A DNA stretch of 64,000 bases from Eledone cirrhosa (GCA_964016885.1 CAXHJY010000472.1:6557-70556), one strand, 5' to 3'; numbered from the stretch's first letter, positions 3,001 through 59,923 are shown. Translations and numbers: made by a program. The notes: generated by a model not told the origin, from the sequence alone.

Positions 3001-4116
3001 GTGGTATACTTATGGTTTTCTTACATTTATATGCATTATATGCACTTATATTTTGTTTTATGTTATTTGTTGTAGAGTATGAGAATTTAACTGTAGACCT
3101 ATTTAAGATTTGATGGTATTTGTGGTTTGGCGGGAAGTTTTTCTCAAGGATATAAAAAAATTTTTTAGCAATATTATCCTTAACTTGTAAATTAAAAGGA
3201 GCATTATACCAAGTAACCCGTCTATTACGGTTTCTATGTTGTTTATTATTTTTATTATTTTTATAGGTTGTATCGTGATTTTTACTAGGAGGATTAATGT
3301 TAATGATCTCACCACAACTATTTTTAGTTATATTTGTAGATTTAGGTGTTTTATCCTTTTTATTAGGAGTTTTATTATTAATATTTATTAGAGTTGTATG
3401 ATGAGTAGTTTTTTGAGAGTTACTATACTTTATATTAGAAGATTTGGTATTTTGGGGTATAGTGTGGGTGGCATTTATGTGTGTACTTTTCATTTGGTGT
3501 TTGTTGGTAATATTATGTTGTATGCTTTCAGTATTTTTAGTAGAAGGTATATACTCTAATCTATTTTTGTGGCCACTTCTATCTAGAGCTTCGTTATAGA
3601 AGGTCGCATTTTTATCAAATACATCTTGGTTAGAAGAAAGGTTAGAAATTCTAAGTGATATATTATATGCAAGGTTTTTAAGGATAGATTTAGGGTGATT
3701 AGATTGTGAGTGTATGTAATGTAAGTTTTGGTTAGGTTTATGGTAAGGTTGGTAGATACCCGTAGCTAAATCTAAAGTTATATCTAGGAAATTTACTACT
3801 TTACTTGTTTTTTCAAAAGTAATATTAAGATTATAATAGTCTTTAAGGAAAGTTCTAATATGTTTTTTGTTTTTTTCAATTTCTGAAAGGCTAAGGTTGT
3901 TAGAAAGAAGAAGACAGTCATCACGGTATAAACCACCTTTGAGGTGGGGAAAAGAGGCATTTATGTTGAAAAGGAGAAAGAGGCCCACAAGATCAGTAAT
4001 TTGGGCGGAATCGCTTGAACCCATAGTAATATCAAAAAGATTACTATATGTGTTTCTGGTCCAGTATTCATTCTGAAATTCAATAAGTGTTAGTCTAGCA
4101 TGTGTAATAATATTAA
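1..4116 (-). mobile_element. PLE (Naiad-like) copy A, 5'-truncated inside RT, runs off the window start
   Basis: Reverse complement is near-identical to copy C from ~12470 onward (ORF, AT-rich 3' UTR, compound microsatellite). Confidence 0.92.
2522..4116 (-). CDS. 5'-truncated PLE ORF: RT palm/thumb, linker, GIY-YIG endonuclease
   Basis: Open frame with TMGSSDSAQITDLVG, GGLYRDDCL, VNFLDITLDL, GCNCRNKANCPLKGNC, IVYKC..SYIG, FKTRFNTH, CRLCSQE and LLNKRQE. The first ~37 aa of the track ORF (4117-4228) are antisense pLTR sequence and are excluded. Confidence 0.9.
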
Positions 4117-4533
4117 CAGAGACATTAACCTTGAAATTTTGTATTTGCATCCATCCTTTTAGTATGCGTATACAAATTATACATACATTTTTGTAAAATA
4201 TGTGTAAGGGTTTTACATGTATATACACACACCGAACTGCATTTAACCCTTTGTGTTTTCATTGGTCAATTTTGTTCCCAAACGGACCTGAAATTTTGAA
4301 TTGTTGTTATTATCAATAAATATACTTCATTATTTCTGAAGACGGCGTATATATGTGTTGGTATGTATATTTAATCTTGATAATTTGTATAATTTTGTAT
4401 AATTTTGTACATAGATCTGTTGAATATGCATACCAATTCTAACACATATATATCCTAGAAACGATCGTTAAATAATGAACTTTTTTTGTTTAATATAAGG
4501 AATTGTTTATTCATTATTTGTTTAATATTTTAT
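4117..4533 (+). mobile_element. Inverted pLTR fragment of the same PLE fused to the 5' end of copy A
   Basis: Matches ~10927-11334 of copy C and ends at aatattttat running into (TA)n. Confidence 0.9.
4326..4479 (+). ncRNA. Type I hammerhead ribozyme in PLE pLTR (long helix II)
   Basis: ttcattattt-CTGAAGA-[115-nt hairpin]-GAAA-cgatcg-tt-aaataatgaa. Perfect 10-bp helix I, palindromic minimal helix III, predicted GUU cleavage after 4469. Confidence 0.8.
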
Positions 4534-4782
4534 ATATATTTATATATATTTATATATATATATATATATATTTATATATATATATATATATTTATATATA
4601 TTTATATATATATATATATATATTTATATATATATATATATTTATATATATATATATATATATATATAATATATAAATATATATATATATATATATATTT
4701 ATATATATATATATATATATATATATATATAAAATATTAAACAAATAATGAATAAACAATTCCTTATATTAAACAAAAAAAG

Positions 4783-4937
4783 TTCATTATTTAACGATCG
4801 TTTCTAGGATATATATGTGTTAGAATTGGTATGCATATTTAACAGATCTATGTACAAAATTATACAAAATTATACAAATTATCAAGATTAAATATACATA
4901 CCAAACACATATATACGCCGTCTTCAGAAATAATGAA
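4783..4937 (-). ncRNA. Hammerhead ribozyme, pLTR of copy B
   Basis: Reverse complement of the motif at 4326-4479. Confidence 0.8.
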
Positions 4938-55798: not shown

Positions 55799-56585
55799 AT
55801 TGGAATAAATGCTCTGAAATAGCGATATATATGTGAATATAGACATAGAATATTCGAAAATATTCTGTATGTTTATAATAAACATTTTGAAGACCTAATC
55901 GCTATAGAATAGAATACGTCACGTATTACAATTAGATTCTCGATAAAAGCAAGGAAGTAATCTACGCGTTTCATTCTCGTTAGAATCATCAGGACTACAT
56001 ATCCAGTGCTTTTATCGAGAATGACACAGCTAGAGACTTATAGAATACTTAGCTGTGTACAGGAACTGGTTTGAAAGAGCGGTTGCGGTCCGGCAGAAAT
56101 TAGAAATTGGAATAAATGCTCTGAAATAGCGATATATATGTGAATATAGACATAGAATATTCGAAAATATTCTGTATGTTTATAATAAACATTTCAAAAT
56201 GTTTATTATAAATGTTTATTATAAATGTTTATTATAAACATACAGAATATTTTCGAATATTCTATGTCTATATTCACATATATATCGCTATTTCAGAGCC
56301 TTTATTCCAATTTCTAATTTCTGCCGGACCGGCAACCGCTCTTTCAAACCAGTTCCTGTACACAGCTAAGTATTCTATAAGTCTCTAGCTGTGTCATTCT
56401 CGATAAAAGCACTGGATATGTAGTCCTGATGATTTCTAACGAGAATGAAACGCGTAGATTACTTCCCTTGCTTTTATCGAGAATCTAATTGTAATACGTG
56501 ACGTATCTATTCTATAGCGATTAGGTCTTCAAAATGTTTATTATAAACATACAGAATATTTTCGAATATTCTATGTCTATATTCA
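55799..56585. mobile_element. Head-to-head pair of 310-bp retrozyme-like units (~1.3 copies on -, ~1.2 copies on +)
   Basis: Minus 55799-56194 (HHR 55957-55998) is fused to plus 56193-56585 (HHR 56420-56462). Both 3' ends run into (TA)n. Confidence 0.87.
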
Positions 56586-58480
56586 TATATATATATATAT
56601 ATATATTATATATATATATATATATTTATATATATATTTATATATATATGTATATATATATATATAATATATATATATATATATATATATATATATATAT
56701 ATATATTTATATATATATATATATATATATATATATATATATATATTTATATATATTTATATATATATATAAATATATATATATATATATATTTATATAT
56801 ATTTATATATATATATATATATATATATATATATATATTTATATATATATTTATATATATATATATATATATATATATATATATATATATATATATAAAT
56901 ATATATATATATATATATATATATATATATATATATATATATATATATATATATATATATACATATATATATAAATATATATATAAATATATATATATAT
57001 ATATATATATATATATATATATATATATGAATATATATATTTATATATATATTTATATATATATTTATATATATATATATATATATATATATATATATAT
57101 ATTTATATATATATTTATATATATATTTATATATATATATATATATATATATATATATATATATATATATATATATATATATTTATATATATATTTATAT
57201 ATATATTTATATATATATTTATATATATATTTATATATTTATATATTTATATATATATATATATATATATATATATATATATATTTATATATATATATAT
57301 ATATATATATATATATATATATATATATATATATTTATATATATATATATATTTATATATATATATATATTTATATATATATATATATATATATATATAT
57401 ATATATATATATATATATATATTTATATATATATATACATTTATATATTTATATATATTTATATATGTATATATATATATATATGTATATATATATATAT
57501 ATTTATATATATATATATATTTATATATATTTTATATTTATATATATTTATATATATTTATATATATATATATATATATATATTTATATATATATATATA
57601 TTTATATATATATATATATTTATATATATATATATATTTATATATATATATATATATATATATATATATATATATATTTATATATATATATATATATATA
57701 TATTTATATATATATATATATATATTTATATATATATATATATTTATATATATATATATATATATATATATTTATATATATATATATATATATATTTATA
57801 TATATATATATATATATATATTTATATATATATATATATATATATATATTTATATATATATATATATATATATATATTTATATATATATATATATATATA
57901 TATATATATATATATATATATATATATATAAATATATATATATATATAAATATATATATATATATATATAAATATATATATATATATATATATAAATATA
58001 TATATATATATATATATATATATAGATATATATATATATATATATAAATATATATATATATATATATATATATATATATATAAATATATATAAATATATA
58101 TAAATATATAAATATATATAAATATATAAATATATATAAATATATAAATATATATAAATATATATATATATATAAATATATATATATATATAAATATATA
58201 TATATATATAAATATATAAATATATATAAATATATAAATATATATATATATATAAATATATATATATATATATATATATATATATATATATATATATTTA
58301 TATATATATATATATATTTATATATATATATATTTATATATATATATATATATATATATATTTATATATATATATATATATATATATAATATATATATAT
58401 ATTTATATATATATATATATATATATATTTATATATATATATATATATATATATATATATATATATATATATATATATAT
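56586..58480. repeat. (TA)n tract
   Basis: Direct reading. Confidence 0.97.
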
Positions 58481-59923
58481 ATGTGAATATAGACATAGAA
58501 TATTCGAAAATATTCTGTATGTTTATAATAAACATTTTGAAGACCTAATCGCTATAGAATAGAATACGTCACGTATTACAATTAGATTCTCGATAAAAGC
58601 AAGGGAAGTAATCTACGCGTTCATTCTCGTTAGAAATCATCAGGACTACATATCCAGTGCTTTATCGAGAATGACACAGCTAGAGACTTATAGAATACTT
58701 AGCTGTGAACAGGAACTGGTTTGAAAGAGCGGTTGCCGGTCCGGCAGAAATTAGAAATTGGAATAAATGCTCTGAAATAGCGATATATATGTGAATATAG
58801 ACATAGAATATTCGAAAATATTCTGTATGTTTATAATAAACATTTTGAAGACCTAATCGCTATAGAATAGAATACGTCACGTATTACAATTAGATTCTCG
58901 ATAAAAGCAAGGGAAGTAATCTACGCGTTTCATTCTCGTTAGAAATCATCAGGACTACATATCCAGTGCTTTTATCGAGAATGACACAGCTAGAGACTTA
59001 TAGAATACTTAGCTGTGAACAGGAACTGGTTTGAAAGAGCGGTTGCCGGTCCGGCAGAAATTAGAAATTGGAATAAATGCTCTGAAATAGCGATATATAT
59101 GTGAATATAGACATAGAATATTCGAAAATATTCTGTATGTTTATAATAAACATTTTGAAGACCTAATCGCTATAGAATAGAATACGTCACGTATTACAAT
59201 TAGATTCTCGATAAAAGCAAGGGAAGTAATCTACGCGTTTCATTCTCGTTAGAAATCATCAGGACTACATATCCAGTGCTTTTATCGAGAATGACACAGC
59301 TAGAGACTTATAGAATACTTAGCTGTGAACAGGAACTGGTTTGAAAGAGCGGTTGCCGGTCCGGCAGAAATTAGAAATTGGAATAAATGCTCTGAAATAG
59401 CGATATATATGTGAATATAGACATAGAATATTCGAAAATATTCTGTATGTTTATAATAAACATTTTGAAGACCTAATCGCTATAGAATAGAATACGTCAC
59501 GTATTACAATTAGATTCTCGATAAAAGCAAGGGAAGTAATCTACGCGTTTCATTCTCGTTAGAAATCATCAGGACTACATATCCAGTGCTTTTATCGAGA
59601 ATGACACAGCTAGAGACTTATAGAATACTTAGCTGTGAACAGGAACTGGTTGAAAGAGCGGTTGCCGGTCCGGCAGAAATTAGAAATTGGAATAAATGCT
59701 CTGAAATAGCGATATATATGTGAATATAGACATAGAATATTCGAAAATATTCTGTATGTTTATAATAAACATTTTGAAGACCTAATCGCTATAGAATAGA
59801 ATACGTCACGTATTACAATTAGATTAGGTCTTCAAAATGTTTATTATAAACATACAGAATATTTTCGAATATTCTATGTCTATATTCACATATATATCGC
59901 TATTTCAGAGCATTTATTCCAAT
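58481..59923 (-). mobile_element. Array of ~4.3 x 310-bp retrozyme-like units on -, fused head-to-head to a ~100-bp plus-strand piece
   Basis: Period 308-310 bp with four HHRs (~58608, 58916, 59226, 59536). Inversion junction at 59822-59825 (gatt microhomology). Confidence 0.87.

Follow-up and report, generated by a model that had tools for sequence, protein, structure and literature searches.

A 64,000-nt window of a 70-kb contig in the 3.0-Gb Eledone cirrhosa assembly (the window being the whole stretch of DNA analysed here) was examined by masked self-comparison and direct reading. It holds 12 ribozyme-bearing inserts with TA tracts between them, made of Penelope-like elements (PLEs) or of non-coding tandem hammerhead units, and this work concerns the way in which these inserts are paired. 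Ten are two-armed, with the arms joined 5′-to-5′, and two (34415-34745 and 50862-53118) are single-armed, the 5′ end of each being joined to TA. The arms end at one of two 3′ sites, a distal (long) site, L, or a proximal (short) site, S, and the stretch between S and L is called the tail. Every pair in the window except that at 35114 has one arm ending at L and the other at S. Below, numbers with the prefix L (L031, L237 and so on) denote stretches fetched from the genome, and C1 denotes a contig of the assembly.

Several inserts consist of family A, a Hydra-like PLE. Copy A (1..4116, minus strand) is 5′-truncated within its open reading frame (ORF), has its L end upstream of the window (L166:4823), and is partnered by a pseudo-long terminal repeat (pLTR) fragment (4116..4533, plus strand), which carries a hammerhead-like core at 4336 and runs at its S end into (TA)n. 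Copy B (4729..10736, minus strand), with an S end and a 5′ end within the ORF, meets copy C (10737..18640, plus strand), in which a 5′ pLTR (10737-11470) is followed by a reverse transcriptase (RT) and GIY-YIG ORF (~11626-14060), a microsatellite-rich 3′ untranslated region (UTR), and a 3′ pLTR with a hammerhead-like core at 18305, S at 18503 and L at 18640. Copies D (minus strand, S end) and E (plus strand, L end) occupy 36647..46450 around a junction at 41712-41717. The insert at 34775..35129 comprises an L arm (34775-35114, minus strand) and a 14-16-nt plus-strand piece, joined at ~35114.

The other PLE inserts are shorter pieces. Head-to-head L/S pairs are formed by 3′ stumps of a second Hydra-like PLE, family B (23305..23725; junction ~23548; tail 61 nt), by 3′ stumps of a Neptune-like PLE (28710..29307; junction ~29020; tail 54 nt), and by 3′ UTR pieces of a Hydra-like PLE, family D (29437..31648; junction ~30629; tail ~165-170 nt), which has the variant core CCGAAGA. 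The single-armed insert at 34415..34745 (minus strand, S end) is a 3′ stump of a second Neptune-like family, for which an endonuclease (EN)-like frame was read by eye upstream in locus L074. Further to the right lie the tandem hammerhead families R310 and R549, which, like R322, are named after their periods in nucleotides. R310 forms a single plus-strand arm of 7.3 units with an L end (50862..53118), a head-to-head pair with L on the left and S on the right (55799..56585; junction 56193-56194), and a second such pair with 4.3 units ending at S on the left and 102 nt ending at L on the right (58484..59923; junction 59822-59825). The R549 pair (63103..63686; junction ~63130), with a hammerhead-like core, has a 30-nt S arm on the minus strand and an L arm on the plus strand.

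A first-pass annotation of the window had named nine inversion junctions, and all are present: 4116/4117, 10734-10736 (with a 3-nt overlap), ~23548, ~29017-29023, ~30629, ~35114, 41712-41717, 56193-56194 (2-nt overlap and a short tandem duplication) and 59822-59825 (4-nt overlap). Its list had missed a tenth pair, that of R549 at ~63130. The claim that the copies are joined 5′-to-5′ wherever polarity is readable was borne out by ORFs or hammerhead-like cores at every named junction, including ~30629, the polarity of which had not been read and where at least 7 of 24 genomic copies are preceded on their own strand by a Hydra-type EN. The 3′ ends also run into (TA)n as stated, at every outer end in the window and at copy A's end outside it. 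The pattern had been said to hold from 14 bp to 8 kb; the head-to-head layout does, but the 14-16-nt arm at 35115-35129, whose end is not at S or at L, need not be a second complementary DNA (cDNA).

We then considered which elements share this layout. Three genomic copies of family A (L245/246, L247/248 and L261) carry an intact ORF of 813 aa that includes YRDD and YIGAT. Its motifs include VRWRA, SDKTG, CNCRNKTNC, CRLC and CNH, with the absence of CCHH read by eye; a profile search matched the ORF to an RT in the PDB (E=0.002), and Pfam gave no significant match on the Hydra-like ORFs. The pLTR contains a hammerhead, found by motif scan, with a 10-bp helix I, and the element ends in TA. Judged by its motifs, C-terminal GIY-YIG, hammerhead and (TA)n insertion, family A appears to be a Hydra-like PLE, with a body of ~7.2 kb that exceeds the <3 kb of the Hydra clade, a size given as general and not as diagnostic (PMC8557442; here and below, statements on cited papers other than PMC11167929 refer to the available parts of their texts). 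The ORF of copy C carries 13 one-base homopolymer indels in 2,432 nt on the plus strand, compared with none in 4,138 nt of the minus copies; these indels, found in the plus-strand copy alone, are likely sequencing errors.

The elements at 23548, 29022 and 30629 had been taken for non-coding RNAs of ~280 nt. Their longer copies run on into PLE ORFs, and they are really the 3′ stumps of three other ORF-bearing PLE families. The element at 23548, with 16,662 exact core matches in the genome, is the 3′ end of a Hydra-like PLE (family B) whose ORF lies between such ends in L151, L153, L154 and L169 (a 597-aa frame in L153). The Neptune-like element at 29022 (8,795 core matches) directly follows the EN end of an 863-aa frame (L155/L156) that has DKS, CX4CxxC and a weak RVT_1 match (E=0.001). 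PLEs of the Neptune/Nematis type have a CX2-5CxxC linker, CCHH, a DKG-type motif and a C-terminal EN, and the frame is called Neptune-like by its motifs and not by placement in a tree. At least 7 of 24 loci of the element at 30629 (family D; 489 matches) have a Hydra-type EN ~0.9 kb upstream of it. The EN is C-terminal in all ORFs found, unlike in Naiad/Chlamys, which have an N-terminal EN and no canonical hammerhead. A local Rfam search did not recognize the ribozymes at 29107 and 23431, and over the whole window Rfam gave only sub-threshold microRNA matches among the 150 of 221 listed. Yet another Hydra-like family, seen at L170:1436-5959, has an open frame of 821 aa and is likewise arranged head-to-head, with unequal 3′ ends in TA. 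In addition, a GC-rich palindromic repeat recurs between TA tracts at L110, L134, L199 and L223 and is probably another element of the same kind.

The head-to-head grammar is thus shared by at least four RT/EN families. It had been said to hold across unrelated sequences, which is so for these families but not for the RTE-like long interspersed nuclear element at ~23951-28050 (RVT_1, E=8e-31), which has its own simple-repeat tail. The annotation had also proposed that a single PLE of the window, family A, mobilizes all the ribozyme elements. The presence of the same grammar in all families and the intact family A ORFs would accord with this, but three of the supposed non-coding RNAs are stumps of PLEs with their own ORFs, and R310 is unlike the family A pLTR, so that we regard family A as a rather unlikely sole mobilizer.

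Non-coding families with hammerhead or hammerhead-like cores do exist, as the same proposal required, in the form of tandem units of 310, 322 and 549 nt (R310, R322 and R549), and the doubtful part is the single RT/EN that would serve them. The longest stop-free frames are 59 aa in R310 and 54 aa in R549; R322 has 1,713 genome matches and R549 has 63. R310 has a full ribozyme core (Rfam HH9, E=0.017, under the gathering score), and five of its eight common variants fall in the ribozyme (N7, helix II base, loop II or a wobble in helix I), with conserved core bases unaffected. The R549 hammerhead-like core was found by motif scan, and the R322 ribozyme, often decayed, was read by eye. R310 shows no similarity to the family A pLTR, and the only PLE sequence that it matches is the family B ribozyme core (25 of 28 nt). 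R322 and R310 are 76% identical over 157 nt that span S and L. No autonomous partner was found beside 30 loci with this R310/R322 module; the PLE frames near L199 and L217 were rejected as such partners because they are neighbouring inserts. A 163-nt deletion variant of R322 at L219/L220 (C1, 56.078 Mb) lacks the hammerhead and still forms a tandem array with an L end, suggesting that the ribozyme may not be needed for insertion. Judging from their insertion footprint, the non-coding families likely use PLE machinery in trans. As a separate observation, words of R310 occur in at least 20 sequencing runs (17 studies, 18 organism codes; shares 0.36-0.61), which we do not take as evidence of host range, contamination or horizontal spread; no RNA run was among those listed, and one run, X4, gave a single 340-nt contig at low depth. 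Overall, the architecture first noted is real and stronger than stated, and the account of which element serves which is partly wrong.

To quantify the pairing of ends, R310 ends were counted genome-wide by exact patterns, which gave 1,173 L and 1,188 S ends. In the first 222 Mb of C1 (191 ends), all 62 minus-then-plus pairs within 20 kb were L+S (p=2e-19); about 40 of the 62 were checked in fetched sequence, where L031 had a duplicated junction and L044 gave no clear reading. Forty of the 67 unpaired ends were also fetched, of which 28 proved to be partnered with the other end class, 10 consisted of one arm whose 5′ end lay in TA or a different microsatellite, and 2 were uninformative. Hence, without selection for end class, the partner ends were L+S in 28 of 28 cases, and the two-armed share of R310 inserts is ~87%, with ~13% single-armed. 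The first 100 R310 core matches, taken irrespective of TA, gave 12 clusters, of which 10 were minus-then-plus, and the sole plus-minus adjacency consisted of two neighbouring inserts. Random head/tail orientation, named beforehand as a finding that would undo the pattern, was disfavoured: neighbouring ribozyme cores within 12 kb were head-to-head rather than tail-to-tail by 28 to 2, 19 to 0 and 21 to 0. (TA)6 followed 26/30, 28/30 and 24/24 core-picked copies in three families, compared with 16% of random 125-nt windows, a background that is higher for the second and third families, which were searched over spans >125 nt.

The rule extends beyond R310. Adjacent minus-plus ends of family A were L/S in 33 cases, L/L in one (17.6 kb apart) and S/S in none, and its 32 fetched pairs comprised 31 L+S and one S+S. 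All five resolved R549 pairs and all five family D pairs were L+S, and R322, an older family, matches the R310 layout, with one S+S pair. When end motifs were tallied across every fetched locus and one miscount was corrected, there were 107 L+S, 2 S+S and 0 L+L, although many of the family A and R310 loci in it had been chosen as L/S pairs. We looked for a common fold around the S and L sites and saw none. After an S+S family A insert at L249/L250 (C1, 30.693-30.708 Mb) comes a copy of a further Hydra-like family in reverse orientation, joined 5′-to-5′ to an L arm of family A, and this may be a chimera of two families. At L115/L116, a family B pair has a 17-nt TA run right at the 5′-5′ junction.

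Inverted copies might be produced by sequencing or assembly, through fold-back reads or chimeras of multiple displacement amplification. The 70-kb contig does have strand-biased errors (the 13 versus 0 indels above) and TT-biased TA tracts, and the junctions are seen in assembled sequence. However, a mirror would repeat one end on both sides, whereas here the ends differ in a fixed way; the pattern is also present on a 443-Mb contig with unique flanks, the arms of R322 have diverged (85-99% identity), and contigs of the short-read run X1 have loose ends into TA at S and near L. An artefact is therefore the weakest of the rival explanations and extremely unlikely. Regarding the tracts themselves (for example 18640-23305, 35130-36645, 46450-50865, 53117-55800 and 59922-63104), 10 of the 11 examined in the window are interrupted, mostly by plus-strand TT, and one is uninterrupted; the interruptions are independent of the orientation of the adjacent arm and follow a near-identical pattern in four tracts, and long TA tracts on C1 are polarized too, in either direction. 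The bias reflects either strand-specific read error or copied tracts, and tract lengths in this contig are unreliable.

We next asked whether the two arms of an insert derive from one template. In R310, both arms had the same haplotype at eight polymorphic sites in 46 of 48 inserts, compared with 19% of 2,387 between-insert comparisons, and 13 rare variants were fixed in all units of both arms, with none fixed in one arm only. In short family A arms, there were no substitutions between the arms of 10 of 12 inserts, and the arms of other copies mostly differed by several. Copies D and E of the window share a haplotype and differ from each other at 1 of 406 positions, versus 10-12 differences to other copies. 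An RNA-independent origin of the arrays, as DNA-level satellites grown by unequal crossing-over from pLTR-derived seeds (10.64898/2026.07.22.740005), appears very improbable in this light: internal duplications of 5-7 units in the long R310 arrays L040 and L043 do indicate some growth after insertion, but the ~1,200 dispersed arrays terminate in TA at two fixed positions of the unit, and each has a single inversion and a single haplotype.

In an alternative that retains retrotransposition, each end of the break copies its own RNA molecule, both usually transcribed from the same active source locus, as proposed for L1 (PMC2837659). Overlapping arms would then need no strand displacement, and the S+S insert at L249/L250, which continues into the possible two-family junction, would be readily accommodated. 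Yet if the two RNAs are equivalent, nothing explains why an L+S combination should be obligate (62/62; 28/28), some L arms end exactly at S, and the rare variants are fixed in both arms or in neither (13 versus 0). Such dual priming is unlikely.

The junctions and the geometry of the arms bear on the joining step. R310 junctions without inserted bases had microhomology of at least 2 nt in 24 of 37 cases, versus 18% at random, and 15 of 52 junctions carried inserts of 1-8 nt, supporting the earlier proposal that two cDNAs primed outside-in are joined at their 5′-truncated ends. The R310 junction offsets are spread around the unit, and the L arm is the longer in 28 inserts and the S arm in 24. 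Each arm has sequence that the other lacks in family A inserts L235-L239, in window copies D/E and in several long inserts, the S arm often extending further 5′ than the L arm; the arms of L236, L238 and L239 are disjoint, and in L237 and L267 the L arm is the tail alone and stops at S. These features are relevant to models in which a single cDNA or antisense template folds and is copied, with EN resolution leaving the tail (PMC3846280, PMC8557442). Fold-back of this kind would explain identical arms, the near-palindromic junctions in short family A and B inserts, the position of the R310 S site at an internal (TA)4, and a one-unit variant in both arms of L053. It is, however, largely refuted for the disjoint inserts and at odds with the many non-tandem ones in which neither arm contains the other, with the R310 offsets and the near-equal numbers of longer L and longer S arms, and with L085, which is not mirrored; moreover, the near-palindromes coincide with the common 5′ end of the sense RNA. 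We thus consider self-priming improbable.

That common 5′ end is seen in short copies. In short family A inserts, from loci chosen by length, both arms start no more than a few bases from window position 18298 in 8 of 16 and one arm does so in 6 more; this position lies in the 5′ strand of hammerhead helix I. In family B, 18 of 28 pairs had a core spacing of 54-81 nt, with both arms starting at the point equivalent to that of family A, and ~30 nt above it is what we take to be a TATA-like box. Both Neptune-like families contain AAAATGGCG at window 29010-29030 and 34700, where several short copies begin, presumably a YY1/initiator-like word. A 3′ splice-site reading of the family B accumulation (CAG followed by ATTCC) was rejected, since the bases inserted at junctions vary and an AG is absent from family A at this point, and a transcription start or an exonuclease stop is tentatively preferred. 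The cDNAs cross the ribozyme cut site, indicating that the template was uncleaved, as in PMC11167929.

Taken together, at least four PLE families and three non-coding families form head-to-head L/S inserts, which probably arise by twin target-primed reverse transcription (TPRT) of one sense RNA from both ends of a (TA)n break. From the orientation, L+S pairing, shared haplotypes, junction microhomology, 5′ accumulation and TA flanks, all read directly, we infer the following course. The GIY-YIG EN would cut both strands of (TA)n; one 3′ end would prime at L and the other 26-170 nt upstream of it, at S, with a few nucleotides of AT/TA pairing in each case; and both cDNAs would run toward the 5′ end of the uncleaved RNA, with the L enzyme displacing the S cDNA or stopping at S. 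The cDNA 3′ ends would then anneal by microhomology, each templating the second strand of the other, and a failure of one end to extend would leave a single arm, as in ~13% of R310 inserts. The non-coding families would be served in trans by a PLE enzyme, from a circle or a linear multimer. The annotation had regarded both break ends as equivalent primers; both appear to prime, but they are not alike on the RNA, as one starts at L and the other at S. It had further ascribed the layout to the self-complementarity of (TA)n, which fits, yet PLEs of Adineta vaga show the same architecture with 8-10-bp target site duplications (PMC3846280), so that TA self-complementarity is probably not the cause.

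Several observations weigh against twin TPRT of one RNA. Two RNAs transcribed from one source locus, or conversion between the arms, could also give shared haplotypes. In families B, D and the Neptune-like family, whose short and indel-rich arms made the haplotype test noisy, the partner ranked as closest arm in only 10 of 18, 1 of 4 and 6 of 22 cases, respectively; the test was clear for most long arms of these families, and the Neptune-like rows, which include spurious low-complexity pairs, were not used as support. Two S+S exceptions exist, L249/250 (family A) and L057. The junctions are known from the assembly, and contigs of run X1, possibly from the same sample, have no strand-changing joints. 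No empty target site was present among the fetched loci, and (TA)n may therefore pre-exist or be added at insertion. The use of non-coding RNAs by a PLE enzyme is read from the footprint alone. Finally, the observations on the form of the template point two ways: of 104 R310 5′ ends, one lies at helix I and none at the cut site, a lack of accumulation as expected of a circular template, whereas L arms stop at S in 8 of 52 cases versus 3.5 expected (p=0.02), and this excess, together with L053 and L085, suggests linear multimers in some events.

Beyond twin TPRT itself, we tentatively propose a more specific form, obligate asymmetric twin priming, in which one ribonucleoprotein would hold one RNA at two fixed registers and the cDNAs would template each other without a separate second-strand primer. 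Retrozyme circles with the two-register module, the 157-nt segment shared by R310 and R322, might be converted into inverted concatemers by two strand-displacing RTs, one chasing the other. The L/S asymmetry would be explained by an RNA-bridged dimer, a dimer being predicted for the Poseidon protein PAc (PMC11167929).

Head-to-head PLE copies with a one-sided tail (PMC2377424, PMC3846280, PMC8557442) and (TA)n targeting by Hydra (PMC8557442) have been published. Compared with canonical EN+ PLEs (Penelope, Poseidon, Neptune and Naiad), as described in the available texts, inversion is here the default (~87% of R310 inserts), 107 of the 109 pairs scored have a one-sided tail, and tails reach 137-170 nt rather than the published 30-40. 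In contrast to the antisense self-priming proposed in 2013 (PMC3846280), the present data favour two primings on sense RNA. Family A resembles the Hydra clade (PMC8557442) in its RWR (RWK as published), DKT, CxCX5C linker, CxxC, CxH, C-terminal GIY-YIG, hammerhead and (TA)n targets, and differs in its length (~7 kb versus <3 kb, because of the microsatellite-rich 3′ UTR), its N/T/K-rich linker and a hammerhead with a helix II of ~115 nt. In vitro, PAc cleaves and extends both strands, uses two start sites bounding the tail, and accepts uncleaved RNA (PMC11167929). The elements described here share the two internal RT starts bounding the tail, the use of both strands and the uncleaved template, but PAc showed no strand difference in start site, whereas the genomic pairs are strictly asymmetric; that study proposes neither per-event L+S pairing nor cDNA-cDNA joining. 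As in L1 twin or dual priming (PMC2837659, in its available part), RTs would prime from two strand nicks and leave a 5′-to-5′ junction; L1, however, uses an opportunistic second site and has non-overlapping arms, whereas the inserts here have a fixed second site and usually overlapping arms, and arise in this way as a rule.

How PLEs finish insertion and which enzyme moves animal retrozymes are open questions in the cited papers. The L+S rule, the presence of one haplotype in each event and the arms that stop where the sense RNA begins bring the inverted copy and the tail into one testable mechanism. We found no report of obligate L+S pairing or of inverted, tailed retrozyme arrays in the literature searched, subscription papers and supplements being outside its scope, and within that scope the obligate pairing and the PLE footprint on retrozyme arrays appear to be new. 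R310 and its relatives resemble metazoan non-LTR retrozymes (PMC7229834, PMC7761336, 10.64898/2026.07.22.740005) in their tandem low-GC units and hammerhead-like cores, and R310 and R549 also in the lack of a long open frame; retrozyme units have a type I hammerhead and no ORF and measure 150-450 bp (PMC7229834, PMC7761336), and up to 972 in the preprint (10.64898/2026.07.22.740005). The available parts of these three texts propose PLE help from co-occurrence and pLTR homology and do not describe inverted arrays, tails or TA targets. By comparison, the ~1,200 young R310 inserts with a PLE footprint provide direct genomic evidence of retrozyme arrays laid down as PLE-type retro-insertions.

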